A stretch of 44,474 nucleotides of DNA from Spirochaetota bacterium (GCA_030673105.1 DAOVJS010000003.1:1-44474), one strand, 5' to 3'. Shown: positions 7,033 through 44,261, numbered from the stretch's first letter. Notes: generated from the sequence alone by a model not told the origin. Numbers and translations: made by a program.

Positions 7033-7557
7033 TTATTCTTCAGAATATTTAACTATAGAGAATACAGGTTCATTTATACCTTCTCTCCCGCCTAAAAACT
7101 CCAGCTCTACCAGGAACGCTGCTTCAATAAGATTTCCTCCAAGTAATTCTACAATTTCAATCATCGCTTTTAGTGTCCCCCCTGTTGCGAGAAGATCATC
7201 GACGATGAGAACATTTTCCCCTCTATCTATCGCATCTTCGTGGACCGCCAGGGTATCGGTTCCATATTCTAATTCATAAGTCACCTCAATTTGTTTACAA
7301 GGTAGTTTTCCCTTTTTTCGAACCGGTATAAATCCCGCATTTAGAAGATATGCAAGAGGGCCCCCTACAATAAACCCCCTTGATTCCGCTCCTACAACTT
7401 TACTGATCTTTTTCCCTTTATACCTTTCATAGAGGATATTAATTGATTCTTTGAAGGCTTTACTATCCTTCCAGAGAGTCGTGATATCTTTAAATCCAAC
7501 ACCGGCTTTTGGAAAATCCGGAACATTCCTGATAAATTTTCTCAAATCCATAAACAT
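7033..7557 (-). CDS. apt: Adenine phosphoribosyltransferase
   Basis: PDFPKAGVGFKDITT, ESRGF, YELEYG, VDDLLATGGT. Confidence 0.96.
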   Translation of the reverse strand: MFMDLRKFIRNVPDFPKAGVGFKDITTLWKDSKAFKESINILYERYKGKKISKVVGAESRGFIVGGPLAYLLNAGFIPVRKKGKLPCKQIEVTYELEYGTDTLAVHEDAIDRGENVLIVDDLLATGGTLKAMIEIVELLGGNLIEAAFLVELEFLGGREGINEPVFSIVKYSEE

Positions 7558-7560
7558 TCC

Positions 7561-8538
7561 TTACTCATTAAAGGTAAATTCCTTAAGGTCTTTCGAGAGT
7601 TTAAAACTCTTCAATTTTCTCAGGGCACTGTTCTGTATCTGTCTTACGCGTTCTCTTGTTATCCCGATAGCCTTTCCAGTCTCTTCAAGGGTATAGGGCC
7701 CTTCACCATCCAGACCGAATCTTAACTCTATTATCCTTTTTTCCCTGGAACTTAGCTTATTCAACACCTGCTTTAAAAGTTCCTGCAGAGCCATAAAAAA
7801 GATTACATCCTCATACATTACGCTTTCTGTATCTTCAATAAGATCAGACAGTTCCGATGAGCCGTCTATATTCACGGGAGCTTCAAGGGAACCCGGCTCC
7901 TGGGCAATGTGCAGGATTTTTACCACTTTTTCTTTCGGGATACCCAAATGTTCTGATATTTCAATTGGAGTAGGTTCCCGGCCAAGTTTTTGGGTAAGCT
8001 GCTTAGTCATATAGTAACATTTTTTAATTGTATTAAGCATATGTATCGGCAATCGAATCATCCGTCCCTTATCTGCTATCGCTTTAATAATCGACTGACG
8101 GATCCACCATGTACTGTACGTGCTAAATTTAAACCCTTTGGTATAATCAAAACGATCAATCGCCTCAATAAGACCAATATTACCCTCATCTATCAGATCA
8201 ATTAAGCTCAAGCCTCTATGCTGGTACTTTTTTGCAATACTTACCACCAGCCTTAGATTTGCCGTTACCAGTTTATTTTTTACGTCAATCAGTTTTTGTT
8301 CGTACGCTTTCCTTTCATTTTTACATGCCCGTCTATCGATCTCCTCAATCTTTAACTTATATGAAAACTTATTCAAAGTGTCCTTAAAATATCCTATTTC
8401 GATATAACACTTTTTTTCTTCTTCAGGGCGTAATAGAGGGATTTTGTTAATCTGCTTTAAATAATAGGCTATAGGGTCATCCTCATCCTTATGCAAATTG
8501 TGATCAGATTTCTGAAGTTTATAATTCTGCATTTCCAT
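7561..8538 (-). CDS. rpoS: Group 2 (RpoS-like) sigma70-family factor
   Basis: Regions 1.2 (DPIAYYLKQI), 2 (NLRLVVSIAKKY, FSTYSTWWIRQ) and 4.2 (TLEE..ITRERVRQIQ); no region 1.1; nlpD-sigma-apt context. Symbol is based on synteny. Confidence 0.8.
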   Translation of the reverse strand: MEMQNYKLQKSDHNLHKDEDDPIAYYLKQINKIPLLRPEEEKKCYIEIGYFKDTLNKFSYKLKIEEIDRRACKNERKAYEQKLIDVKNKLVTANLRLVVSIAKKYQHRGLSLIDLIDEGNIGLIEAIDRFDYTKGFKFSTYSTWWIRQSIIKAIADKGRMIRLPIHMLNTIKKCYYMTKQLTQKLGREPTPIEISEHLGIPKEKVVKILHIAQEPGSLEAPVNIDGSSELSDLIEDTESVMYEDVIFFMALQELLKQVLNKLSSREKRIIELRFGLDGEGPYTLEETGKAIGITRERVRQIQNSALRKLKSFKLSKDLKEFTFNE

Positions 8539-8714
8539 ATTATAATATAAAGATAGGCAAGTAAACTTTCAATCATTATGATATTTAATTGCTCGCCTCG
8601 TTATTTGTTTTTAGCAATAAAGCCGGTATTAAAATACCGGAGAGAGCTGGTACAAAATACCCGCTTCCTCTGGTACGAAGTACCAGCTATTAATAGATAA
8701 AACCATAAGACAAG

Positions 8715-9401
8715 CTAAGGTAAATAATAAAGAGGGTTTACAGGTTTGCCTTTATAAAAGAGCTCATAGTGTACCACTTCTTTGTCAGAGCCTTTTACAC
8801 CATTTACTCTTGCAATAACAGCATTGATTTTTACAGTTTGTCCTTCTTTGACAAGACTTGTTATATTCCTTGAATAAAGGCTGTAGAAATCATTACCATG
8901 CTCTATTATGATTGTATTTCCATATCCACGGATAGTACCCGATATTACAACAACACCCGACTGTGCAGCAACAATATCCTGGTTTCCATTTGGCTTCAGA
9001 TCAATACCATAGTTAAAATCAGTTTGATGTTTGCCATAAGATCTTATTACCTCACCTTTAAGAGGCCACACAAAATCCAACTTTTCATATTCCCGGGGGG
9101 TATCAATTTCATTCCCCTGGACAAATAGGATACTTGTTGCTTCGGGTATAAAAATCCATGTACCCTGCGATATATGCACAACATCTTCTATATCATTCAC
9201 TTTTTTTATTTCCTCTAAGGAAACCCGGTAAGTTTTTGCGATCCTCCATAGTGTTTGTCCCTCTTTAACCCTGTGCCAGACCCCTCTTTCATAAGAAGTG
9301 TCTACCTGCCGGTAGATGTTCTGAGTTGTCGTACATGAAAAGAAAAAAACTATAAAAAACAATAATAGAAATTTCAATTTTACAGGGGCACTTATATTCA
9401 T
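8715..9401 (-). CDS. NlpD-like LysM/M23 lipoprotein
   Basis: Lipobox FFFSC; LysM (HRVKEGQTLWRIAKTY); degenerate M23 domain (WPLKG, NYGIDL, GYGNTIIIEH, HYEL..VNPL). Confidence 0.85.
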   Translation of the reverse strand: MNISAPVKLKFLLLFFIVFFFSCTTTQNIYRQVDTSYERGVWHRVKEGQTLWRIAKTYRVSLEEIKKVNDIEDVVHISQGTWIFIPEATSILFVQGNEIDTPREYEKLDFVWPLKGEVIRSYGKHQTDFNYGIDLKPNGNQDIVAAQSGVVVISGTIRGYGNTIIIEHGNDFYSLYSRNITSLVKEGQTVKINAVIARVNGVKGSDKEVVHYELFYKGKPVNPLYYLP

Positions 9402-9454
9402 AGTATTTCTCTTTTTACTATTAATCGGTATCTATTAACGTTTTATTAAATTTC

Positions 9455-9483
9455 TTGACAATACAACCCGGTTTCATTAGATT
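9455..9483 (+). promoter_or_regulatory. sigma70 promoter of the tRNA pair
   Basis: TTGACA-N17-TAGATT, 20 nt before tRNA-Asp. Confidence 0.65.
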
Positions 9484-9502
9484 ACACACTGCTGACAAAG
9501 CT

Positions 9503-9576
9503 GGGAACGTGGCGAAGCTGGTTATCGCGCCGGCCTGTCAAGCCGGAGATCGCGGGTTCAAATCCCGTCGTTCCCG
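9503..9576 (+). tRNA. tRNA-Asp(GTC)
   Basis: Acceptor GGGAACG/CGTTCCC; anticodon arm CCGGC-CTGTCAA-GCCGG; T arm GGTTCAAATCC; CCA not encoded. Confidence 0.95.
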
Positions 9577-9616
9577 AATCAATAGTTAATTAGAATAATT
9601 AATGTCACCAGATAAA

Positions 9617-9690
9617 CGGGCTATAGCGCAGTTTGGTAGCGCGCACGGTTCGGGACCGTGAGGTCGTGAGTTCAAATCTCACTAGCCCGA
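9617..9690 (+). tRNA. tRNA-Pro(CGG)
   Basis: Acceptor CGGGCTA/TAGCCCG; anticodon arm CACGG-TTCGGGA-CCGTG; T arm GAGTTCAAATCTC. Confidence 0.95.
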
Positions 9691-9750
9691 TTTTTTTCCT
9701 CTCGTTACTCCAGTGTTATTCTACCTTCATTAATAAATAAATTTTCACAA

Positions 9751-10632
9751 CTATAAGTCGCACATATCAAGCAGCTCTGGAACGTACTTTTCCCATCCCA
9801 TGGCCATTATGTGAAGGCCCTGACACATTGGCTTTACTTCTTTTATAAATTCTACCATGAGCTCAATGCTCTTTTTCGGCCTATCCTCTTTGGATGCCTC
9901 CTTGAGAGGTGTAATCATGGAATCAGGAACCTGTACCCCGGGTACAAAGTTATTCATATAGTTGGCCATTCCTGCGGATTTGATAATGACAATTCCGCAT
10001 AGGACAGGAACCTTATATTTAGAAGCTTTGTCCATGAAATTTTCAAATACTTTAGAGTCATAAATTGCCTGTGTCTGGAAAAACTGGGCTCCTTCCTCTA
10101 TTTTTCTCTCCATTTTTATAAGCTGCATCTCTATTGGATCAGCGCCTGGAGTTACAATGGCACCGCAGAAAATATCCCCGGGAACCCCTTCCAGTTCCTG
10201 CCCGGCAAGGTCTTTTCCATTTTTTAAAGAGTTCATAGCCGTGAGTATACTCACGGAATCAAGATCGAACACGGGTTTACTTTCAGGATGATCTCCGGCT
10301 GAATTATGATCGCCTGTAAGAGCAAGTATGTTCCTGATACCCAGCACATAGCCCCCTAGAATATCTCCCTGTATGGCAAGCCTGTTTCTATCCCTGGCGG
10401 TTATTTGCAGTATAGGCTCCAATCCCTGCCTGGCCAGAAGTGTACAAATACTCAATGAACTGATACGCATCACTGAGCTCTGGTTATCTGTGACATTAAT
10501 TGCAACGACACGGTCTTTTATATATGAAACCTCCTTATCCATGCAGTGTTCCAAATCTACACCTTTCGGAGGCCCTACTTCCCCGGTAATTGTGAATTTG
10601 CCCTGCTCCAAGCTTTCCTGTAATTTACTCAT
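9751..10632 (-). CDS. metF: Methylenetetrahydrofolate reductase, MetF subunit
   Basis: ITGEVGPPKG, NVTDNQ, RDRNRLAIQ, ALTGDH, GAQFFQTQ, GLHIM. Confidence 0.93.
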   Translation of the reverse strand: MSKLQESLEQGKFTITGEVGPPKGVDLEHCMDKEVSYIKDRVVAINVTDNQSSVMRISSLSICTLLARQGLEPILQITARDRNRLAIQGDILGGYVLGIRNILALTGDHNSAGDHPESKPVFDLDSVSILTAMNSLKNGKDLAGQELEGVPGDIFCGAIVTPGADPIEMQLIKMERKIEEGAQFFQTQAIYDSKVFENFMDKASKYKVPVLCGIVIIKSAGMANYMNNFVPGVQVPDSMITPLKEASKEDRPKKSIELMVEFIKEVKPMCQGLHIMAMGWEKYVPELLDMCDL

Positions 10633-11347
10633 TCGATGCCTCCTCCTTCTCTGAATTCAGCACAGGTGCTGAATAAATTTCAGCTTTTTCCAGTGCCCAG
10701 CGCGTTGTGGTCCTCTCCTTATCAGGCACATCCATTTTTCTGTAGTCCCGTAAACGCGGGAGCTTCTTTAAATTTTCCAGTTTTCCAAGCTCGTTCAATC
10801 TTATATAAATAAGATTCCAACCACAATCCCTTTCATTTTCCACCTCGCATTTGCCATCATGCTGGCCGCCGCACATTCCATTAATCAGGCTCTTTGAGCA
10901 CATTGTTATGGGGCATATACCGCCGGTAAGTGCAAGATAACAGGTGCCGCAGCCCGCGCATCGCTCGCTGGAAGGCCATAGTCCCTGCATACCCTGGCTT
11001 GATAACGTATCGTTGGCAGGTATGACCGGAATATCTATCATATTTCCAGTAGCCTGAACACCGATGCCGCAGGATATTACGAGTACTGCCTGTGATTTTT
11101 TAAGCTTCTCAATATGGTATATAAGCTTTGATCCAACAAGGGCCTTGTTACACAGAAAGTCTATTTCAGTGCTTCCCTCAACTTCTATGCCATTCTTTGA
11201 AAGCTGCTCTGTTAGTTCATCGATTCTCGGTTTTCCGCCTGAATCACACCCTACAGGGCACCCTCCGCATGCGACAATAAACAGGCTCTTGTAACCTGAG
11301 ACCATCTCAATAAGTTCTTTACCTGGCTTTGGAACATTGACAACCAT
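10625..11347 (-). CDS. metV: MetV, Fe-S/Zn subunit of MTHFR
   Basis: CGGCPVGC, SCGIG, CAGCGTC..GGICP..CSK..NGMCGG..CEV..CGW; overlaps metF by 8 nt. Confidence 0.88.
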   Translation of the reverse strand: MVVNVPKPGKELIEMVSGYKSLFIVACGGCPVGCDSGGKPRIDELTEQLSKNGIEVEGSTEIDFLCNKALVGSKLIYHIEKLKKSQAVLVISCGIGVQATGNMIDIPVIPANDTLSSQGMQGLWPSSERCAGCGTCYLALTGGICPITMCSKSLINGMCGGQHDGKCEVENERDCGWNLIYIRLNELGKLENLKKLPRLRDYRKMDVPDKERTTTRWALEKAEIYSAPVLNSEKEEASNE

Positions 11348-11386
11348 TCATGTGCCTCCTTATTTAAATGCTGGTTTTTTATAGTC

Positions 11387-11872
11387 TTAACTGACTGTTT
11401 CGATGCCTTCCTTCTTTAATTCATCCAGAACTGTTGCTATGATGTAGTTCATTTTTTCTTTTATTTGCGGAGAAAGCTCCATTGAGAGTTCAATTTTATA
11501 AGGCTCGATACCGAAAAAAACGACCTCATCCGGAAATTTTCCCAAAACCCTCTCCAGTTTAATCGATTCCAGGACTCCAAAATCATGAAGAGATATCGTC
11601 ACAGGCCTTCCTGCCTCTTCAATATCGCCCGGTTTAAATCGATAAACGGTTCCCGCCTCCCGGCCTCCGTTTACAGCATCGATAATAATAACCTTTTCAA
11701 AACTTCTAAGATCGGATACGATATTGAAAAAAGAAGTTCCCGCATCTATTAACTCAATGTCCCCTGTATACGATTTCTTTTCCAGTATATTTACTACTTC
11801 TATACCGACGCCTTCGTCTCCCATCAGTATATTTCCAACTCCAACCACTGCTATCTTTTTCTGAGCCGTAAT
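11387..11872 (-). CDS. Hydrogenase maturation endopeptidase (HybD/HycI family); start uncertain (ATT 11872 or GTG 11848)
   Basis: KKIAVVGVGNILMGDEGVG, IDAGT, IIDAV, SLHD motifs. Confidence 0.9.
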   Translation of the reverse strand: MTAQKKIAVVGVGNILMGDEGVGIEVVNILEKKSYTGDIELIDAGTSFFNIVSDLRSFEKVIIIDAVNGGREAGTVYRFKPGDIEEAGRPVTISLHDFGVLESIKLERVLGKFPDEVVFFGIEPYKIELSMELSPQIKEKMNYIIATVLDELKKEGIETVS

Positions 11873-11884
11873 TGTATACCCTTT

Positions 11885-13444
11885 TTAGACAACTCTTAGA
11901 GCTCCAAGCTTCTTCCCTTTTATATTTAAAGTATGAACCGAACACGCCAGGCATGGATCAAAGGATCTGGCAATACGGACAAGCTCATAAGGATTTTCAG
12001 GATTTTTCACCTCTGTTCCAATGAGCGCCTGTTCCATTGGCCCCGATTGTTCCTTTTCATCTTTCGGAGAACCGTTCCATGTGGTAGGCACAACGAGCTG
12101 GTATCTTTCTATTTTTTTATTTTTGATCTTTATCCAGTGGCCCAGTGCCCCACGCGGCCCATCGACGATTCCCATGCCCTCTGATTCCTCCGGTATTTCA
12201 TAGGCTACGCATACAGGCTCTCCTGCCTTTAGTTCCAAAACCCAATCGGCCATACTGTCCGCGATCAGCTTGGCATCCAGAGCGCGAGCCGCATGTCTTC
12301 CGAGAACCGAGTTAAGGTCCTTTGTTTCAATATTCAATGCTTTCATGCAACCCTCAAGCGCTTCTTTTACCTGTTTCTGACCGGAAAGATACGACACTAC
12401 CCATCGAGCGAGCGGTCCGACTTCATAAACCTTTCCTTCGTACCTTGGTGACCTGATCCAGCTGTATCCTTCTTTTTTCCGTGCATTGGGTTTTGTATCT
12501 TCTTTAGTAGGATGTAAAGCATCCTCACCTTCATACCACGAGTGTTTTATACTTTCGGTAATGCTGTCGGTATTCAATTTTTTCAAGGCACTCAGGCCTT
12601 CAACAGCACCCTGAGGAATCAATCGTTTCCTGGTCGTATAATCATCTGACTTCCCATCAAGGTCAAAAACTCCGTAGCTGAGAAAGTTTCCGGGACCTGC
12701 GCCTATGTTGAAATAATCAGAGTAGGTTTTTGCTACCGCTATTACGTCCGGAATATATGTGTTATCAATAAAATATCTCAGCTTATTAAGCCTCCATAAA
12801 AACCGTGTGATTTTATCTATTGAAGGATGCTCCGTTACCCCGCCGGGAACGACCGACGCGTTATGAGGCATCTTTCCACCAAACAGGGTAAGCATTTCAT
12901 GTGAGAGCCTTCTCATTTCCAGGGCTGTCAGATAGTGTTTTGTCAGTTCCTGGTTTGTTTCTTTATCAAACCGGTAATCACCCTCATACCTTGGAACAAA
13001 AGGCGAAAGCTCACCCCTTGCTATGAAGTCTTTTAAAGAATTCAATTCAGCATCTTTACCGCTGTAGTCAGCTACGGCAGTCACATCTGCAAAATCAAGC
13101 GCCGCTAAATGGTAAAAGTGAAGAATATGTGATTGGATATAATTGGCCCCGAGGATGAGATTTCGAAGGATTCTTCCATTATCCGGAACTTTATCTGCAA
13201 TACCAAACGCACTGTCAAGATTCAGGGTCGATGCTGTTCCATGCACCGTAGGGCAGACACCACAGACTCTCTGCGTGATTCTCTGCGCGTCTCTCGGATC
13301 TCTATCCCTCAAGAAGATTTCAAAACCTCTGAAGAGTGTTCCTGAACATTGAGCATCCTTAACCACTCCATCCTCAAGATAGGCATCTATCTTCATATGA
13401 CCTTCAATTCTGGTCAATGGGTCAATTGTTATCTTGGTCGACAT
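11885..13444 (-). CDS. [NiFe] hydrogenase large subunit, group 1a/Hys-like (Cys, not Sec)
   Basis: IDPLTRIEGH; L1 RGFE..RVCGVC; L2 SFDPCLACSVH plus a cleavable C-terminal extension. Confidence 0.93.
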   Translation of the reverse strand: MSTKITIDPLTRIEGHMKIDAYLEDGVVKDAQCSGTLFRGFEIFLRDRDPRDAQRITQRVCGVCPTVHGTASTLNLDSAFGIADKVPDNGRILRNLILGANYIQSHILHFYHLAALDFADVTAVADYSGKDAELNSLKDFIARGELSPFVPRYEGDYRFDKETNQELTKHYLTALEMRRLSHEMLTLFGGKMPHNASVVPGGVTEHPSIDKITRFLWRLNKLRYFIDNTYIPDVIAVAKTYSDYFNIGAGPGNFLSYGVFDLDGKSDDYTTRKRLIPQGAVEGLSALKKLNTDSITESIKHSWYEGEDALHPTKEDTKPNARKKEGYSWIRSPRYEGKVYEVGPLARWVVSYLSGQKQVKEALEGCMKALNIETKDLNSVLGRHAARALDAKLIADSMADWVLELKAGEPVCVAYEIPEESEGMGIVDGPRGALGHWIKIKNKKIERYQLVVPTTWNGSPKDEKEQSGPMEQALIGTEVKNPENPYELVRIARSFDPCLACSVHTLNIKGKKLGALRVV

Positions 13445-13465
13445 GATTACCCTCCGTTTTTGAAG

Positions 13466-14350
13466 TTAACGTGTTTTAATTTTAAATCTTTCAAGCGCGT
13501 CTTCATTTAGCTTTGTAAACATGGGTGCAAGTTTATCTTGAAAGTCGGGCTCCACACATCCTATACACTGCGCACCTGCACCTATACACCAGTTTGTTCC
13601 ATTATTCCACTGCCTGCTGGGACAGTCAGCATAACTATATGGTCCTTTACAGCCGATTTCATATAGGCAGCCTGGCTCGCTGGGGTTTCGCGCGAACTGA
13701 CCTGCATCAAAAAATGCACGGCGAGGGCAGTTGTCGTGAATAAGATCTTTAAAAAACGCTTTTGGTCTTAATTTTTCGTCCAGGTCATCAGGTGACGGAA
13801 GACCATTAATAAGAACATGCGCTATTGTCCCGACTATCCAATCGGGGTGCGGCGGGCATCCCGGAATATTAATCAACGGTGTGGATATACCCTCATTTTT
13901 GAAAAAATCAGCCACAGACAGTGCTCCGGTGGGGTTTGGAGCCCCTGATGGTATACCTCCGTAGGAAGAACACGTTCCCACAGCAAGCACGGCAAGCGCG
14001 TCTCTAGCGAGCTCAGCCGTCATATCTTTCATTACAACTTCCTCTCCATCAAGTTTACCAATTGTGCAGTAGAGTCCATCCTCTGCAGTCGGAACAGACC
14101 CTTCCACCATGAGAATGTACTCATTCGGCTTTTGAGAAATAGTTTCTCTCAATATCTTTACGACAGGCTCACCCTGCCCTGCCATTAATGTGGCGTGAAA
14201 TATGAGAGATACATGCTTCCCGGGAAGAACAGGATCAACTAAAACGTTCTGGATACTCGGACTAATTGAATTTAACAGCGAAACAGAACACCCTGAACAG
14301 GCAGCCCCTGCTATCCAAATCGCTGGAAACTCTACGACTTTTGAAGACAC
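13466..14350 (-). CDS. [NiFe] hydrogenase small subunit without a Tat signal
   Basis: CSGC, GTC, PGCPP, HDNCPR, CLYEIGCKGP, ADC, WC..QCIGC; the protein starts only about 17 aa before the first Cys. Confidence 0.93.
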   Translation of the reverse strand: MSSKVVEFPAIWIAGAACSGCSVSLLNSISPSIQNVLVDPVLPGKHVSLIFHATLMAGQGEPVVKILRETISQKPNEYILMVEGSVPTAEDGLYCTIGKLDGEEVVMKDMTAELARDALAVLAVGTCSSYGGIPSGAPNPTGALSVADFFKNEGISTPLINIPGCPPHPDWIVGTIAHVLINGLPSPDDLDEKLRPKAFFKDLIHDNCPRRAFFDAGQFARNPSEPGCLYEIGCKGPYSYADCPSRQWNNGTNWCIGAGAQCIGCVEPDFQDKLAPMFTKLNEDALERFKIKTR

Positions 14351-14517
14351 GATCAGCCTCCTTTGTGGTTTTAATTATTAATTTTTCCAATTTGTTTTGG
14401 CAATTAATATTCTGTCTTATTGAAAATTTACCTGATTTCAATTTTTGATGATTTATAAGACGAAGTTTAAGGAGCTCCCACATTTTTCTGTGTGTTTAAA
14501 ATTTAACAATTTAGTAA

Positions 14518-14546
14518 ATTATAGACAGGCGCGAATGTAAAGTCAA
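14518..14546 (-). promoter_or_regulatory. sigma70 promoter of the hydrogenase-metVF operon
   Basis: Minus strand TTGACT-N17-TATAAT. Confidence 0.75.
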
Positions 14547-14585
14547 GAAAAAATTAATCATCATATTAGCCATTCATTCACGGGT

Positions 14586-15296
14586 TCATGACCCGGATGG
14601 AATTGACTTTATAAATGTAAATAGTTTCCTGTAAATGTTTAATGTATCGGTAAATGATACATCAAAATAATTAACAATCTCAACCCTTTTAAACATAAGC
14701 GCGATAATCAGGGCAAGAACAATCACAGACCAGGTAAATATAAAAATCAAGGATGAAAAATGTCCGTATCTTTTTAGATCGGGTTGATCTATTTGAATAT
14801 AATGAATGGTTGCAATTACATGAAAAGAAAGCGATATTCCAATAAAAAAATAGAAAATACCGGAAAGCAAGGCGCTCTGAAAAAATATCCATACAATTTT
14901 AAAAACACATATTATCACAAGAGTATACAGGGGCAGGGAATATGGAGCAAGAGCAATGATTATATTAACTCTTTCAGTCTTTACAAACCCTTCATTTCTC
15001 TTGAGAGACATGCTCTTTACCTTCACCCCGCTGATTAGGGCAAACAAGACATGTGACAGCTCATGTTCGAGAATATAACTTTTCGCAGGAGGGCCGAATA
15101 AAAGGAAAAGTATGAGAAAAATTACGAATCCGCCCGCAGAAGACAGCATCCCGGGAGTAAATGTATGGTAATCTGCAAATAAAACCGGCATATGCAACAC
15201 GAGAGAAACAGCAAGCGGAATAATCCCTAGAGAAATTACTAAAAGGAGTGGCTTGAGAACTACTTTGTTATTTCTTTTTTTTGTTTTTCGCCTCAA
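14586..15296 (-). CDS. Membrane protein, possible M50-like zinc metallopeptidase
   Basis: About 5 hydrophobic segments, HELSH (HExxH), IALAPY, QPDL; start uncertain. Confidence 0.6.
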   Translation of the reverse strand: MRRKTKKRNNKVVLKPLLLVISLGIIPLAVSLVLHMPVLFADYHTFTPGMLSSAGGFVIFLILFLLFGPPAKSYILEHELSHVLFALISGVKVKSMSLKRNEGFVKTERVNIIIALAPYSLPLYTLVIICVFKIVWIFFQSALLSGIFYFFIGISLSFHVIATIHYIQIDQPDLKRYGHFSSLIFIFTWSVIVLALIIALMFKRVEIVNYFDVSFTDTLNIYRKLFTFIKSIPSGS

Positions 15297-15669
15297 CTAT
15301 CTTTGCTAACATGTCCCGGGCTAATTTTTTTGCTGCAGGTTCCTGAAACTCATTCGTAACTTTTCGAAAATATATTTCAGCTTTATCGTATTCTTCCTTT
15401 ACATAATAACAAAAGCCGATCTCATAATGGGCCCAGGTACTTGCCCTCAATTTATCCGGATAATTTGTTATTATTGCCTCGTAAGCTGTTATCGCATTAT
15501 CAAATCTGTTGTTATCAAACTCTTTCTGAGCTATTTTGTCATATTCGATTATTGTAAGTGGCTTTCCATCCTTATATAAAGCCGGCATCTTTGAAGCACA
15601 GGAAAGAAAAATATATGAAATAGTCAGTATTATTATGAGATATAGATATGTATATAAATTTTTTCTCAT
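15268..15669 (-). CDS. Small TPR lipoprotein
   Basis: Lipobox IFLSC; TPR helices (AITAYEAII, AHYEIGFCYY). Confidence 0.75.
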   Translation of the reverse strand: MRKNLYTYLYLIIILTISYIFLSCASKMPALYKDGKPLTIIEYDKIAQKEFDNNRFDNAITAYEAIITNYPDKLRASTWAHYEIGFCYYVKEEYDKAEIYFRKVTNEFQEPAAKKLARDMLAKIVEAKNKKKK

Positions 15670-16246: not shown

Positions 16247-17818
16247 GTGGTTGAAAATGAGAAATTGGATCCGGAAATAGCTGATCTGCTGGGTATTCAA
16301 TCCGGGACAGCAGATCCGGAAATCGGTACAGCAGGACAAACCGCACCTTCAACAGATAAAATCCAAAAAACTGAAATGCGCTCACTTAACCTGCATGGTT
16401 TTTTAACCGATAAAAATCATTATTCAAAAATTATTGATATGACAGGAGAATACGGAACGAGGTTAAACGAGATATTGTCAAAGTTCTTAAAAGCGACGGA
16501 TAAAGACGAAAAGTCCATGTACCGTGAAAGACTTACCCCAGCCTACTGGAATATGTTAACACACCTTATTAACAATTTTTTTAGTAGCCTGACTGACGAA
16601 AAACAGGCCCTTTATCGTTATGGATTACTCAATAATACCTTCATCGATGCGAGCCAGAGGAACATCCTCATGAGTATAAATACCAGCACTACACAGGATG
16701 ACTTTTCTTTTGTAGATGAATGGTTATTAAAGGTTGGCAATGGAATAATATCACCAAGCTCCATAGATGAGACTGTTAAGGCAAAAAAGAAATCACCATC
16801 TGCTGTTAAAGCAAAACTGGATAGAAAAAGAGGTTCAAAAGATGCTGAACATGTAAATTTCAAGCAAAAATCAGAGCAGCATCGAATGATAGAGAAAAGT
16901 CTTAAGAGCTGCATCACGATTATTTTAAATCATGATCTTATTTCGGAATATGAGAACGTACTAGCCCCTTACAATTCTGAACAAAAAAAAGCACTCTTAC
17001 AGGTTCAAAATATTACAAAAAGTCTGATTAAATCAAATAAGGATATAGAAGCTTCCTACAGGACCCTTGTGGGTCTTGATGGGGATATAAAATCCCTTCA
17101 GAACTCAGGCATTGACCTGTCAGTGGAAGTTGACACAAAAACAGTGACAGAGGAATTCTTATCAATTCGACAGATGATCAAATTAACAGTTGGAAGGCAG
17201 GGGAACCATTTCCCTTTTCTCATTAAATACTATATGCCAAACAGTGATATTGAAGTATGTACTAAAAACAACCTTGAGAAAACCCTGAAAGAAATAGAGG
17301 CAATTGATCCGGGTGTTTTTATTAGAAAATATAAACAGGAGGAACACAGGATAGTTCCTCGTTTTATCATTGTACCCGCTTATGGTAATTATGGAATATG
17401 CTGGGAGCCTTTTGAAAGGATGAACAAGGCCACGAGCAAGGGCAGAATTGCGGTTCCCATGTTCCCCCGTGATTTAAAAATTGCAGTTTTAAATGCGCTC
17501 GGTGATTTGAGATGGCAGATTGCTAAAGAGAAGGCGCTCCATTACTGGATGGAAGAGGGGCTGACAGGGCACTACTACGAATATTCACAAAAAAATAAAT
17601 TAAAAGGCGACTTAAAGCAGGCGTTTATTCAGGATTACATTCTGTGGATCAAATTTGAATCACAGGGAATGCAAAAACTGAATCGGGAAGTCCGAACCAT
17701 TTTCTGGAGATATATCCCATTCACTCAAGAACTTAAAGAAACATTGAAAAACAGGGGCTTTTACTATTCTGAACTCTATAAAAAGGACCAAACGCGGGCA
17801 ATGTCAAGGGGTTATTAA
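16247..17818 (+). CDS. Hypothetical cytoplasmic protein, probably conserved in spirochaetes
   Basis: 523-aa ORF with central coiled-coil and aromatic-rich C-terminal domain; no motif recognised. Confidence 0.8.
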   Translation: MVENEKLDPEIADLLGIQSGTADPEIGTAGQTAPSTDKIQKTEMRSLNLHGFLTDKNHYSKIIDMTGEYGTRLNEILSKFLKATDKDEKSMYRERLTPAYWNMLTHLINNFFSSLTDEKQALYRYGLLNNTFIDASQRNILMSINTSTTQDDFSFVDEWLLKVGNGIISPSSIDETVKAKKKSPSAVKAKLDRKRGSKDAEHVNFKQKSEQHRMIEKSLKSCITIILNHDLISEYENVLAPYNSEQKKALLQVQNITKSLIKSNKDIEASYRTLVGLDGDIKSLQNSGIDLSVEVDTKTVTEEFLSIRQMIKLTVGRQGNHFPFLIKYYMPNSDIEVCTKNNLEKTLKEIEAIDPGVFIRKYKQEEHRIVPRFIIVPAYGNYGICWEPFERMNKATSKGRIAVPMFPRDLKIAVLNALGDLRWQIAKEKALHYWMEEGLTGHYYEYSQKNKLKGDLKQAFIQDYILWIKFESQGMQKLNREVRTIFWRYIPFTQELKETLKNRGFYYSELYKKDQTRAMSRGY

Positions 17819-22512: not shown

Positions 22513-23508
22513 TTATTTAATAAAATTATCCATTTTTTCAAATAATTCAGGGATCTGCTTAAAAAGAGGTTTTATCTCATACTCCAGTACATCTCCTACA
22601 GTGATCATATCTCCATTTTTAAAAGCGCTTTCAACGGATTTTAAACGATCAGTTATTTCATAGAATAAGTCATCGATACTCTTATCGGATATTAACATGG
22701 ACTTAAAATCAATAGTATACATAATTTTCGTAATTTTCAGGATCGATATCACCTCATCCAGAAGCTCCGTTATGTAGCAAAGATCACCTAATGCCTTTCT
22801 ATCTCTCCCGATCTGTAAATCTTTTGAAATACTATCAAATTTTTGAAATGAACTGCTGCAGACATAGGACAGGTCCTGAAAAATCTCCCCTAAAAAAGAA
22901 GATGTCTTGGTTTTATCCCAGTCCTTAAAAAATAAAATATTTTTAATAACCGCCCACTTAAAAACTATGGCAATAAAATACAGCATATTCTTCAGTAAAT
23001 CCTTCAGCTTTTTTATTCCTTCAGGGTCAATATATTTTTTTTCATAAATTAGAATAAATTCATTCATTTCTAAAAGAACGTCCTTAAGTGTAATTCCTTT
23101 CCTGTTAACTATAACAATCGAATTTACGTTTAAAATTCTCAAAGAATCAACGATTCCTGAATAAATAAGCTTCATTCCTTCCAGAATAGAATCATAGTAT
23201 GTCAGACTATCTGAGTCGTCATACTCACTCAGTATTCTGATAATATACTCACCTAAAGACACAATAGTATTTACTGCGAGCTCAATCTGTGTTAAAGTAA
23301 TTACCTTTAATTCCTTGACCAATGATATACTTCTGCTGAATTCAGAGCAGTTATAATCAAAAGGAACTGTTACGCTGTCAATTGAAATAGATTCTATCAC
23401 GTTATCGTTTTCCACAATCCAGCTTTCAAGACCTTTAATTATTTCCCCCACATTCTTTTCAGTTTCGAGTTCAAACTCAATCTTTTCCTCATTAATGAGA
23501 ATCTCCAT
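22513..23508 (-). CDS. Hypothetical helical protein downstream of fliD
   Basis: 331-aa ORF with SD AAGGAG; C-terminal GDVLEYEI segment. Confidence 0.75.
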   Translation of the reverse strand: MEILINEEKIEFELETEKNVGEIIKGLESWIVENDNVIESISIDSVTVPFDYNCSEFSRSISLVKELKVITLTQIELAVNTIVSLGEYIIRILSEYDDSDSLTYYDSILEGMKLIYSGIVDSLRILNVNSIVIVNRKGITLKDVLLEMNEFILIYEKKYIDPEGIKKLKDLLKNMLYFIAIVFKWAVIKNILFFKDWDKTKTSSFLGEIFQDLSYVCSSSFQKFDSISKDLQIGRDRKALGDLCYITELLDEVISILKITKIMYTIDFKSMLISDKSIDDLFYEITDRLKSVESAFKNGDMITVGDVLEYEIKPLFKQIPELFEKMDNFIK

Positions 23509-44064: not shown

Positions 44065-44070
44065 CTAAAT

Positions 44071-44250
44071 ACCTGCTGTGTTCGTGATGCCGGTTTACCT
44101 ATTTTTGAGCCAACACCTACAAAAATGGGATGTCAAAATTTACCTGCGTAATGCGCTCGCCCAAGAGGTTTTAGAGCACAGGAAACAGGTGTGAGACGGC
44201 CCACCTGATATTCAGGTTCAAAATGGCCCCGGCACACGGCACAAGCGGGT
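44071..44250 (+). ncRNA. ssrS: 6S RNA
   Basis: About 180-nt rod: 5' ACCTGCTGTGTTCGTG..GCCGG pairs with 3' CCGGCACACGGCACAAGCGGGT; TTGAGCC/GGTTCAA; TGGG/CCCA around a central bubble; ends in a T run. Confidence 0.8.
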
Positions 44251-44261
44251 TTTTTTATCAG

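Follow-up and report, generated by a model that had tools for sequence, protein, structure and literature searches.

The methylene-tetrahydrofolate (methylene-THF) reductase step is the most exergonic of the Wood-Ljungdahl pathway. Cytoplasmic hydrogenases that are hard-wired to a C1 reductase, with no free carrier between the two, are found in the MvhAGD-HdrABC complex of methanogens and in the hydrogen-dependent CO2 reductase (HDCR) of Acetobacterium woodii. Neither involves MetVF: Mvh belongs to group 3c, uses MvhD and bifurcates electrons, and HDCR combines an [FeFe] hydrogenase with formate dehydrogenase. PMC7325909 and PMC10472528 mention both systems.

The natural electron donor of the MetVF-type methylene-THF reductases (MTHFRs) is an acknowledged open problem, and the ferredoxin use that MetVF displays in vitro would rule out growth on H2 + CO2 on energetic grounds (PMC8760232). 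Type II enzymes, as in Clostridium ljungdahlii, Thermoanaerobacter kivui and Eubacterium callanderi, consist of MetF and a cysteine-rich Fe-S MetV, with metV preceding metF, and are encoded alone (PMC8760232). In type III (RnfC2-MetV-MetF of A. woodii) and type IV (HdrCBA-MvhD-MetVF of Moorella thermoacetica), an electron-input module, which is a NADH-oxidizing flavoprotein, is encoded beside metVF and forms a complex with it (PMC8760232, PMC5736913). The four-type scheme, as laid out in the available part of PMC8760232, contains no hydrogenase-linked type.

Two papers on metagenome-assembled genomes (MAGs) mention such an arrangement in passing. In “Ca. Syntrophonatronum acetioxidans,” [NiFe] hydrogenase 2 is encoded around metF (PMC6295475), and in Ca. 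Bipolaricaulia, HysAB adjoins MetVF, the homologue being assigned to group 1a by HydDB (PMC11287216). Both describe a signal-less or group 1a [NiFe] hydrogenase by metF or metVF and suggest electron exchange at the MTHF step, each in one or two sentences that, in the available text, come without survey, model or assay; the likeness to the locus studied here is by description. The hydrogenase-MetVF arrangement is thus not wholly new. The sequence-only reading of this DNA had not recognized it as a described MTHFR type, which holds for the four-type scheme, whereas the adjacency and the idea were already present in these two papers. A literature search found no biochemical, genetic or structural evidence on a hydrogenase-MetVF enzyme.

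The locus described here lies in a window of 44,474 nucleotides, the whole stretch of DNA analyzed, from Spirochaetota bacterium (GCA_030673105.1 DAOVJS010000003.1:1-44474). On computational grounds, we lean towards the view that its products form a soluble cytoplasmic enzyme, HydS-HydL-MetV-MetF, with H2:methylene-tetrahydrofolate oxidoreductase activity, which would catalyze the reductase step of the methyl branch in the Wood-Ljungdahl pathway.

Gene organization and expression signals

The minus strand from 14350 to 9751 carries five open reading frames (ORFs) in the order small subunit (SSU), large subunit (LSU), maturation protease, MetV and MetF, preceded by putative expression signals, as follows:

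14518..14546, minus strand: sigma-70-type promoter TTGACT-17 nt-TATAAT, 11 of 12 positions matched
14492..14509, minus strand: palindrome TTGTTAAATTTTAAACAC, a candidate operator immediately downstream of the -10 hexamer
14357..14363, minus strand: ribosome-binding site AAGGAGG, read from the sequence, 6 nt ahead of the SSU GTG start
13466..14350, minus strand: [NiFe] hydrogenase SSU, 294 amino acids (PF14720 and PF01058), GTG start
11885..13444, minus strand: [NiFe] hydrogenase LSU, 519 amino acids (PF00374; NF033181)
11387..11848, minus strand: HyaD/HybD-type maturation endopeptidase, 153 amino acids (PF01750; TIGR00072)
10625..11347, minus strand: MetV, Fe-S subunit of methylene-THF reductase, 240 amino acids (PF12225)
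9751..10632, minus strand: MetF, flavin TIM-barrel subunit of methylene-THF reductase, 293 amino acids (PF02219)

Along the unit, the ORF coordinates give intergenic spacings of 21, 36 and 39 nt and an 8-nt overlap in which metF starts inside the end of metV. ORFs and domains agree with the sequence-only reading, which had placed the five genes on one strand with gaps of 40 nt or less and a metV/metF overlap. The unit is flanked by genes for a TPR protein and an M23 peptidase, an unassigned 236-amino-acid ORF and two convergent tRNA genes. Domain searches of the unit and its flanks retrieved no cytochrome b, diaphorase, Hdr, MvhD or RnfC in or adjoining the unit, bearing out the earlier claim that it holds no other redox partner, and no RnfC/NuoF-like domain occurs among the ten ORFs of 7033-15669. 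The hydrogenase-metVF unit contains no kinase gene and no hdrA, hdrBC or mvhD. Identity with the type III MTHFR was rejected because rnfC2 is not next to metVF here, and identity with type IV because hdrA, hdrBC and mvhD are not.

The promoter at 14518-14546, which had been called from the sequence, ranks first among 19 promoter-like sites between 9000 and 15000, a class of sites barely enriched over shuffled sequence (19 versus 13.3 ± 4.0). When 11 spirochaete loci are aligned, its -35 and -10 hexamers line up in register in 10 of them. No minus-strand promoter-like site lies within the 150 nt preceding metV; no promoter of its own is predicted for metV, which favors the sequence-only reading. 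The AGG-G core of the ribosome-binding site is invariant across the 11 aligned loci. The palindrome is the sole match in the window to TTGTKAANNNNTWAACAA at one mismatch or fewer, a search in which 15 of 100 shuffles gave at least one match, and it is retained in 7 of the 11 spirochaete loci, with one further degenerate copy. It resembles the Rex consensus, and a Rex N-domain gene (PF06971) was found in genomes G000, G005, G006 and G013 and not in G008. We infer that the palindrome is a candidate Rex-like operator. In an RNA library (a metatranscriptome), pieces of the SSU, LSU and metF genes are matched at 99% or higher by contigs, none of which bridges any gene junction of the unit; these contigs count weakly in favor of the H2:methylene-THF oxidoreductase reading.

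Conservation of the hydrogenase-MetVF linkage

Linkage was surveyed in 80 loci holding the closest relatives of the large subunit. MetV and/or MetF lie beside the hydrogenase in 74 of these 80, which are not 74 independent events, since most rows of the survey are MAGs of related lineages (rows L051 to L067 largely duplicate genomes of another sample in the analysis). In four of the six unlinked loci, the contig ends less than 600 nt past the large subunit, and the remaining two are ordinary Tat + HybA + NrfD enzymes. According to the record titles, the linked loci fall under nine phylum-level labels. In the large-subunit tree, 78 rows (the 74 linked loci and the 4 without downstream DNA) share one side of a branch with an SH-aLRT of 90. 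The linkage is therefore conserved far beyond the lineage of the window, although an orthologue of the linked hydrogenase is missing from one genome of the same genus, G001 (88% complete).

MetV, rather than MetF, is the constant neighbor of the hydrogenase; it still adjoins the hydrogenase in loci where a histidine kinase displaces metF or metF is missing (G008 and L094). Simple loci number 52, and none of them holds a gene for Hdr, MvhD, another flavoprotein or a kinase. More elaborate clusters also occur. In 13 Anaerolineae loci, the hydrogenase is situated between a HdrA-like flavoprotein of 1,489 amino acids and HdrCB-FolD, with two MetVF sets, and a cNMP-binding histidine kinase with two response regulators is found inside the cluster in these 13 Anaerolineae and in 4 Dehalococcoidia loci.

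Properties of the hydrogenase

The best solved matches of both subunits are periplasmic group 1a [NiFeSe]/[NiFe] hydrogenases (1CC1; Desulfovibrio vulgaris Hildenborough 2WPN/5JSH). The SSU is closest to 1cc1_S, the mature chain from Desulfomicrobium baculatum (E value of 8e-84), and the LSU to a chain of the NiFeSe/1a type (3e-125), as are the nearest NCBIfam models. The LSU scores 522.8 bits with PF00374 and 696 bits with NF033181 (cut-off of 600 bits), and the protease scores 132.6 bits with TIGR00072 (cut-off of 47.45 bits). The Ni-Fe ligand motifs of the LSU, RVCGVCPTVH toward the N terminus and DPCLACSVH toward the C terminus, are of the Cys type and not Sec, and the C-terminal extension comprises 15 residues after the histidine; all 83 large subunits checked have both motifs and a tail of 14 to 16 residues. 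In the SSU, the cluster cysteines C18, C21, C127, C165, C208, C228, C234, C243, C255, C262 and C265 are invariant among 33 sequences, and H205, a ligand of the distal cluster, is conserved in at least 90% of them. The SSU carries ligands for three [4Fe-4S] clusters (proximal, medial and distal), and NWC at the medial cluster aligns with NWC of the NiFeSe enzyme 1cc1_S. Because the Ni-Fe motifs, the cleavable tail, the dedicated protease and the cluster ligands are all kept, the hydrogenase looks catalytic.

The alignment of the SSU with mature 1cc1_S begins at residue 7 in both proteins. The open frame ahead of the first CxGC motif spans no more than 25 codons and contains no RR motif. The SSU ends 33 residues past the first cysteine of the last CxGC motif, without the hydrophobic anchor that is present at the C terminus of Tat-bearing relatives. 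Alignment, upstream codons and tail thus agree with the claim, made from the sequence at the outset, that the SSU has neither a Tat leader nor a membrane anchor. All linked loci with the SSU start on the contig have a short frame before CxGC and no Tat-type RRxFL motif. Among four relatives without MetVF, three have Tat-type leaders, RRDF or RREF (L111, L114 and L047), and three have SSU membrane anchors (L111, L114 and L048); L111 and L114 combine the anchor with a HybA-NrfD partner, unlike the hydrogenase of the window. From the missing leader and anchor, the hydrogenase is predicted to be cytoplasmic, and its clade as a whole appears to have lost the export signal together with the gain of MetVF.

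Judged by its nearest solved chains, NCBIfam models and motifs, the enzyme would be a group 1, 1a-like hydrogenase. It shares with group 1a the Ni-Fe motifs, the three [4Fe-4S] clusters with a fourth medial cysteine, the cleavable extension and a specific endopeptidase of the HybD type. It differs from group 1a in lacking the Tat signal peptide, the membrane anchor and a cytochrome or HybA-NrfD partner, in having Cys for Sec, and in being, by prediction, a cytoplasmic, MetVF-linked enzyme with a short SSU C-terminal tail that is modelled on MetV.

A hydrogenase that is cytoplasmic and free of a signal peptide recalls the regulatory hydrogenases, and it could serve as a H2 sensor that controls C1 metabolism rather than supplying electrons. 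The kinase and response regulators in the Dehalococcoidia and Anaerolineae clusters would suit this role. Regulatory (group 2b) hydrogenases have no C-terminal extension and no protease, and they have a partner histidine kinase. The cleavable extension in every large subunit checked, with its dedicated protease, speaks against a sensor, as do the lack of a kinase in the operon and in the 52 simple loci and the modelling of the SSU tail on MetV and not on a kinase. Group 2b identity was rejected on the extension, the protease and the kinase gene not being in the unit, and a sensor, although regulation is among the possibilities listed by Timmers et al. (PMC6295475), is very improbable.

MetV, MetF and the SSU-MetV complex model

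MetF matches PF02219 with 138.9 bits over model positions 1 to 285 of 287, and its matches to solved MTHFRs are full length but weak. MetV matches PF12225 at residues 110 to 202 with 102.6 bits and has twelve invariant cysteines and one nearly invariant cysteine among 33 sequences; no solved homologue was found by sequence, and the fold search gave generic matches only. The features of MetVF-type enzymes are present, namely a MetF with the MTHFR TIM barrel and, directly before metF, a PF12225 MetV with conserved cysteines. The type is further marked by activity with a low-potential donor in place of NAD(P)H. In contrast to type II, a complete hydrogenase, modelled as bound to MetV, precedes metVF, and this [NiFe] hydrogenase stands where types III and IV have their flavoprotein.

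The SSU and MetV were modelled together, as two chains alone, from custom-built, unpaired alignments. Three runs gave ipSAE values of 0.71, 0.61 and 0.71, which are the model's own confidence, against 0.01 for the best control; the score mark is attained by 58 of 80 solved complexes and by 2 of 110 mismatched pairs. The three runs share at least 92% of contacts, with a partner pLDDT of at least 83. The modelled interface on the SSU comprises residues 203, 205-206, 237-238 and 285-294, which cover ligand H205 of the distal cluster, the neighbors of C234 and the C-terminal tail; on MetV it comprises residues 60 to 85, adjoining the invariant C66. Sequence and fold searches with MetV found no similar solved complex. 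MetV is thus predicted to dock on the SSU at its distal-cluster face and C-terminal tail, and the controlled prediction favors the physical interaction at the distal Fe-S cluster that a direct transfer from hydrogenase to MetV entails.

Alternatively, the hydrogenase and MetVF may be co-regulated but unbound, with a diffusible ferredoxin or flavodoxin carrying electrons to a type II-like MetVF. Operons often group pathway steps without contact between their products, the gene for such a carrier need not sit in the operon, and purified type II MetVF takes reduced ferredoxin in vitro (PMC8760232). The same source, however, argues that ferredoxin cannot serve as the physiological donor (PMC8760232), and transfer from H2 to ferredoxin without bifurcation should be uphill at low H2. 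Unbound partners also fit poorly with a complex model that scores 0.70 above controls and sits on the distal cluster, with MetV and not MetF being the invariant neighbor, and with the loss of the export signal alongside the gain of MetVF across the whole hydrogenase clade. This arrangement is unlikely.

Pathway context and energetics

Acetyl-CoA synthase (ACS), formyl-THF synthetase (FTHFS) and HypD are each present in the high-quality genomes of the relatives G005, G006, G008 and G013, so that the proposed check for fhs and acs genes places the enzyme among organisms with a Wood-Ljungdahl pathway. The three were not found in G000 itself, a genome only 61% complete, of which contig C115 begins inside an acs-cluster orthologue. 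The PF02219 search of G006 (97% complete) retrieved a single MTHFR, the linked MetF. The spirochaete family (G008) has a second MetVF set beside a HdrA-MvhD fusion at a separate locus, and the linked enzyme is therefore not the sole route in most members; contig C174 of G000 carries orthologues of the MetF and histidine kinase of this G008 locus, and those only. In Planctomycetia, the gene order is Fhs-Fch-FolD-[Hyd-MetVF]-CooS-CooF-NuoEF.

By our calculation, passing electrons from H2 (-414 mV) straight to an acceptor at -200 mV wastes about 41 kJ/mol under standard conditions, a loss that would be difficult to bear, except at very low H2, for an acetogen growing at the thermodynamic limit. 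This energy would be recovered if HydSL-MetVF were the core of a larger bifurcating complex, in which a Hdr/MvhD-like flavoprotein encoded elsewhere allows methylene-THF and ferredoxin to be reduced together. The flavoprotein and HdrCB genes around the hydrogenase in the 13 Anaerolineae loci and the HdrA-MvhD fusion next to the second spirochaete MetVF are in line with such a complex. Yet genes for Hdr, MvhD or another flavoprotein are missing from the unit, its surroundings and the 52 simple loci, and MetV already occupies the distal-cluster face in the model. MetF, moreover, gives a hydride (two electrons) to its substrate, so its flavin is an unlikely site of bifurcation. Such a complex is distinctly improbable, and HydSL-MetVF is probably neither electron-bifurcating nor directly energy-conserving.

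The same calculation bears on direction. From -414 and -200 mV, the couple would be near equilibrium at about 1e-6 to 1e-7 atm H2, values that are plausible where H2 consumers are active. NiFeSe-type hydrogenases, the type of the closest solved relatives, are good H2 producers. The complex could then run in reverse, oxidizing methyl-THF from methyltransferase systems or acetate oxidation and giving H2 to a hydrogen-consuming partner. A further MetF of G008 adjoins a URO-D-type methyltransferase and a pterin-binding protein, and Timmers et al. proposed H2 production in syntrophic acetate oxidation with the same arrangement (PMC6295475). However, the complete carbonyl and methyl branches of the relatives fit either direction, the Planctomycetia module, set among Fhs, Fch, FolD and CooS, is neutral, and nothing in the sequence fixes the direction. 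Operation in reverse as the main role is rather unlikely.

A putative hydrogen-dependent methylene-THF reductase

In the favored reading, that of an H2:methylene-THF oxidoreductase, the protease would mature HydL without being part of the four-subunit enzyme. The [NiFe] site in the large subunit would cleave H2, and electrons would travel via the three [4Fe-4S] clusters of the SSU, from the distal one to a cysteine-bound cluster in the N-terminal domain of MetV. This domain would lie on the distal-cluster face, clamped by the short SSU C-terminal tail. Electrons would pass via MetV to the flavin of MetF, which would reduce methylene-THF to methyl-THF, and the enzyme would serve these spirochaetes as the reductase of the methyl branch in the Wood-Ljungdahl pathway, the reductive direction being the presumed one. 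The computational evidence supports the sequence-only reading, in which electrons from H2 pass directly to MetV, or the reverse, and those of its refuting conditions that the analysis covered all came out on its side.

That HydSL-MetVF constitutes a fifth MTHFR class, one that depends on hydrogen and had a single origin, is an evenly balanced proposition. A periplasmic group 1a hydrogenase would have shed its Tat leader and anchor while the N-terminal domain of MetV took the distal-cluster face, and transfer would then have carried the enzyme into nine or more phyla of anaerobes from sediments and the subsurface.

The conserved pairing in uncultured anaerobes suggests that H2 may feed one step of the Wood-Ljungdahl pathway directly. 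If this is true, MetV would be a universal plug for input modules (hydrogenase, RnfC2 or Hdr-MvhD), and the question of which donor feeds MetVF would be answered for these organisms. A MetV-wired hydrogenase would define a new enzyme class and would suit many uncultured Chloroflexota, Spirochaetota and other sediment bacteria as the answer to the donor question. The methyl branch of the pathway would be tied directly and reversibly to the ambient H2 level, and for subsurface acetogens or methyl-group oxidizers, both H2 thresholds and ATP yields would have to be calculated differently.

The hydrogenase and MetVF genes form one unit

The hydrogenase and MetVF genes occupy the minus strand of the window, which is contig C165 of a 2.32-Mb genome (G000) in 240 contigs with an estimated completeness of 61%; the nearest relatives of the window are MAGs with the title Spirochaetota. 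The features are as follows.

Features of the hydrogenase-MetVF unit
14546-14518, minus strand: promoter TTGACT-17-TATAAT; 11 of 12 positions match, top site of the region
14509-14492, minus strand: 18-nt palindrome TTGTTAAATTTTAAACAC, directly 3' of the -10 box; candidate operator
14350-13466, minus strand: [NiFe] hydrogenase small subunit (SSU), 294 aa; PF14720 and PF01058
13444-11885, minus strand: [NiFe] hydrogenase large subunit (LSU), 519 aa; PF00374 (522.8 bits) and NF033181 (696 bits; cut-off, 600)
11848-11387, minus strand: HyaD/HybD-type maturation protease, 153 aa; Pfam and NCBIfam
11347-10625, minus strand: MetV, 240 aa; PF12225
10632-9751, minus strand: MetF, 293 aa; PF02219

The genes are separated by gaps of 21, 36, and 39 nt, and metV and metF overlap by 8 nt. 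The SSU starts with GTG behind an AAGGAGG box, and two convergent tRNA genes close the unit at its downstream side. Since the open reading frames (ORFs), Pfam and NCBIfam names, spacing, overlap, and promoter all agree, the five-gene unit proposed in the sequence-only reading is confirmed in all sequence-visible particulars. The remaining genes of the window are housekeeping genes (PBP1, lipoate ligase, two sigma-70 paralogues, Rho, three flagellins, FliD, and ArgRS). A 6S RNA lies at 44067-44255 on the plus strand (RF00013, 78.9 bits), and three ORFs match no Pfam family above threshold, namely, 16247-17818 (plus strand, 523 aa), 22513-23508 (minus strand, 331 aa), and 14586-15296 (minus strand, 236 aa). 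Across the order, the last of these and the preceding TPR gene keep synteny with the operon.

The hydrogenase is predicted to be catalytic and cytoplasmic

The LSU presents the motifs RVCGVCPTVH and DPCLACSVH, the latter followed by a 15-residue tail. These features mark it as a Cys-type rather than a selenocysteine-type enzyme, and as one predicted to be made for cleavage by the adjoining protease. Both motifs and a tail of 14 to 16 residues were found in all 83 extracted LSUs. A sensory (regulatory) role is unlikely because the cleavable tail and the protease are kept, neither of which regulatory hydrogenases are known to have. Selenocysteine was also considered for the shorter LSUs of three related loci (L081, L110, and L113) and was ruled out by their normal end after DPCLAC..H and a tail; those of L081 and L113 are short owing to the choice of start codon.

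The closest solved relative of the SSU is that of the [NiFeSe] enzyme of Desulfomicrobium baculatum (1cc1_S; E, 8e-84), and in the alignment its mature periplasmic chain is matched from residue 7 onward, which leaves a signal peptide no room. Only 25 open codons precede the first CxGC motif, with no twin arginine among them. Counted from the first Cys of the last CxGC motif, the chain runs on for 33 residues to its C terminus without a hydrophobic stretch; in contrast, Tat-bearing relatives display a clear membrane anchor at this position. The N terminus, the search for twin arginines, and the C-terminal tail all bear out the claim that the SSU has neither Tat leader nor membrane anchor. Across 33 aligned sequences, no cysteine ligand of the proximal, medial, or distal cluster varies, and at least 90% of the sequences have the distal-cluster ligand H205; the medial cluster has a fourth Cys, as in NiFeSe enzymes. 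Judged by its sequence, the hydrogenase is catalytic in build, yet cytoplasmic.

Linkage to MetVF is kept across genomes

An LSU orthologue is present at 73% identity or more in 14 of the 16 genomes of the family, and at 70% or more in all three genomes that represent two further families of the order, whereas the LSU relatives in 21 searched genomes from other orders of the phylum reach 46% at best. G001, an 88% complete genome of the genus to which G000 belongs, gave no orthologue of the linked LSU with this query. Sixteen orthologous regions were fetched; 14 encode MetV and MetF, one (from the related genome G008) encodes MetV only, and one ends just past the protease.

When one genome per species was scanned, 357 LSU relatives were returned, and the best 80 were analyzed, the first 17 of which largely duplicate the same spirochaete genomes. 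Linkage to MetV and/or MetF, the conservation of which the proposed coupling implied, is kept in 74 of these 80 loci, under nine phylum-level labels in the record titles (Spirochaetota, Chloroflexota, Armatimonadota, Latescibacterota, Poribacteria, Thermodesulfobacteriota, Planctomycetota, Elusimicrobiota, and Lentisphaerota). The order LSU-(protease)-MetV-MetF occurs in 52 of the best 80 loci, and a cNMP-binding histidine kinase stands between MetV and MetF in 4. Thirteen loci, from Anaerolineae, read MetV'-SSU-LSU-kinase-MetF'-RR-RR-MetV-MetF-HdrCB-FolD, with a 1489-aa HdrA-like protein preceding the series and a cNMP histidine kinase as the kinase, and one has a rearranged version of this arrangement. 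MetV alone was found in four loci, two of them at contig ends, and the DNA ends less than 600 nt past the LSU in another four. MetVF is absent despite available DNA in two loci (L111 and L114), in which the SSUs (approximately 352 to 382 aa, depending on the start) have RRDF/RREF leaders and anchors and are accompanied by HybA-like and NrfD-like genes, features of ordinary periplasmic hydrogenases. A Tat-type motif occurs in none of the linked loci that have the SSU start on the contig; all have a short frame before CxGC.

A quick maximum-likelihood tree of 83 LSU sequences placed 78 (74 linked, the other 4 lacking downstream DNA) on one side of a branch with an SH-aLRT value of 90, with the two Tat-type enzymes as sister; the long-branched linked sequence L120 was unresolved near the root. 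Identity to the window proteins at 56 loci correlates between MetV and LSU (r = 0.95) and between MetF and LSU (r = 0.89), values that are inflated by relatedness. Since MetV and MetF identity tracks LSU identity, the module appears to travel as a unit. At L097 (6989-9473, a Desulfobacteraceae MAG), integrase-core and DDE transposase genes follow the module, which fits horizontal transfer.

MetV is the predicted partner of the small subunit

MetV remains beside the hydrogenase where the kinase displaces metF or where metF is absent (G008 and L094). Complex models were built from SSU and MetV only, without LSU and MetF, each with a 33-row alignment; these alignments cover 33 of 38 loci, five having been left out as their ORF coordinates enclosed a stop codon. 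The SSU-MetV pair gave ipSAE values of 0.71, 0.61, and 0.71, versus 0.01 for the best control. In calibration, 58 of 80 solved complexes reached this ipSAE mark, as did 2 of 110 mismatched pairs, rates that are approximate for self-made alignments. At least 92% of the contacts were common to the runs, with partner pLDDT of at least 83.

In the model, the SSU contributes residues 192-193, 203, 205-206, 215, 217, 237-238, 267-269, 273, 281, 285-286, and 288-294, which include the distal-cluster ligand H205, residues adjoining C234, and the C-terminal tail. The MetV side is formed by residues 60, 63, 67-73, 75-79, 82-83, 85, 103-106, and 121-125 and adjoins C66, an invariant residue of the N-terminal domain. 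No MetV-like chain was found in the PDB by sequence or by fold, so the score is not the memory of a solved complex. With an interface predicted at the distal-cluster face and tail, and with the controls failing, the modeling favors MetV as the partner subunit that would bind the hydrogenase. The AF2 model of MetV itself has a mean pLDDT of 76; its PDB fold matches were rejected as a clue to function, being generic Rossmann-like lobes.

Two loci without MetF at the usual place differ in what follows MetV. L059 (10040-12067, on the closed chromosome of G008) still encodes the hydrogenase, the protease, and MetV, the last of these longer (271 aa); in place of MetF there are two ORFs, one of 212 aa and one of 124 aa, that have no Pfam matches, and MetF copies are encoded elsewhere on the chromosome. 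In L094 (5443-8063, a Dehalococcoidales MAG), a B12-binding radical SAM protein and an amidohydrolase replace MetF after hydrogenase, protease, and MetV.

Leader and transcription

The leader of approximately 160 nt matched no Rfam riboswitch family at gathering score, and its conservation among aligned spirochaete loci is limited to the palindrome and the ribosome-binding site. The palindrome (TTGTnAAnTTTTAAACAA-like) is kept in 7 of 11 such loci (upstream regions of L051, L052, L054, L056, L057, L061, and L062), with one further degenerate copy; its pattern matches once in the window and at least once in 15 of 100 shuffles. The palindrome at 14509-14492 resembles the Rex operator consensus, and a Rex N-domain gene was found in G000 (contig C116) and in three of four relatives, which hints at control of the operon by the NADH/NAD+ ratio.

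A terminator scan returned 4 sites against 5.0 expected, and the one on the minus strand inside metV was disregarded as weak. Seven short metatranscriptome contigs (151 to 296 nt; two runs of one sample, DNA carry-over being possible) fall on the SSU, LSU, and metF genes, six at least 99% and one 95 to 99% alike to the window. None of the seven has 31 nt on both sides of any gene junction; gene parts without cover by these contigs are not informative.

Pathway context and other MetF loci

Wood-Ljungdahl genes, for which a genome check had been proposed, are present in four high-quality related genomes (G005, G006, G008, and G013), each with one acetyl-CoA synthase, one formyl-THF synthetase, and HypD. 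The single methylene-THF reductase (MTHFR) match in G006, which is 97% complete, is the hydrogenase-linked MetF, so by gene content the module there must serve this pathway. G000 gave no match to acetyl-CoA synthase, formyl-THF synthetase, or HypD, which in a genome 61% complete is not evidence of absence; its contig C115 starts with three genes 74 to 86% identical to the acsE end of the acs cluster of G008. In a Planctomycetia MAG (L107, 69-13180), one co-directional block reads Fhs-Fch-FolD-SSU-LSU-protease-MetV-MetF-CooS-CooF-NuoE-NuoF, where Fch is FTCD_C, CooS is a CooS-type CODH, and CooF is CooF-like; it also includes a 2Fe-2S/4Fe-4S protein.

The family is not limited to hydrogenase-linked MetVF. 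A second MetVF set, in G008 (L134, 2682-8412), consists of a MetV-like protein and a MetF of 332 aa; it lies behind a 701-aa HdrA/GltD-like flavoprotein fused to MvhD (FlpD), is followed by a GAF histidine kinase, and looks like a compact type IV-like MTHFR; G000 contig C174 (1-2660) matches its MetF (79%) and kinase. A third MetF of G008 (L133, 3717-7074; 288 aa, 47% identical to the window MetF) has a pterin-binding protein and a URO-D-family methyltransferase as neighbors, a possible entry route for methyl groups into THF.

Relation to described reductases and proposed mechanism

Four MTHFR types have been distinguished, namely, I (MetF), II (MetVF), III (RnfC2-MetVF), and IV (HdrCBA-MvhD-MetVF); this scheme holds no hydrogenase-linked type and treats the physiological donor of type II as unresolved (PMC8760232). 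The sequence-only reading had not recognized the module as a described MTHFR type. This stands as far as the four-type scheme goes, but the association itself was already in print in two MAG papers: in "Ca. Syntrophonatronum acetioxidans," a [NiFe] hydrogenase that lacks a signal lies around metF, with H2 production or regulation as a possible role (PMC6295475), and a HydDB group 1a HysAB adjoins MetVF in Ca. Bipolaricaulia (PMC11287216). Beyond these two passing mentions, no biochemical or structural study of hydrogenase-MetVF was found in the full-text literature, subscription journals and supplements being outside the scope. In the module, a group 1a-like hydrogenase is joined in an uncharacterized way to a MetVF reductase, a pairing noticed in print and never studied.

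In the reading with the best support, H2 would be oxidized at the [NiFe] site, and the electrons would pass through the three SSU clusters, from the distal one to the N-domain cluster of MetV, and on to the MetF flavin, where methylene-THF would be reduced. From standard potentials of -414 mV (H2) and -200 mV (methylene-THF) (PMC9586279, PMC6295475), -41 kJ/mol is calculated at 1 atm H2 and approximately -13 kJ/mol at 1e-5 atm, with equilibrium near 1e-7 atm. The step would thus be near-reversible, at low cost, at H2 levels plausible in anoxic sediments. The same energetics allow the reverse reaction, oxidation of methyl-THF to H2, and the sequence gives no direction.

Bifurcation seems unlikely in the simple five-gene form, because a second flavoprotein is absent from the unit and MetF delivers hydride. 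The Hdr-embedded Anaerolineae form may differ and is a candidate H2-driven bifurcating variant. L074 (1487-17310) and 12 similar loci match, with the hydrogenase added, the hdr-metVF cluster of marine Chloroflexi, for which Sewell et al. described two metVF sets and a two-component system and reported no hydrogenase (PMC5736913).

The reading of the five-gene module as an H2-coupled methylene-THF reductase, as first put forward from the sequence, is supported by the computational tests run, with linkage, predicted interface, and pathway genes all in agreement; the mechanism is a proposed one. With H2 used directly, the cell would not need a bifurcating hydrogenase for the methylene-THF step.
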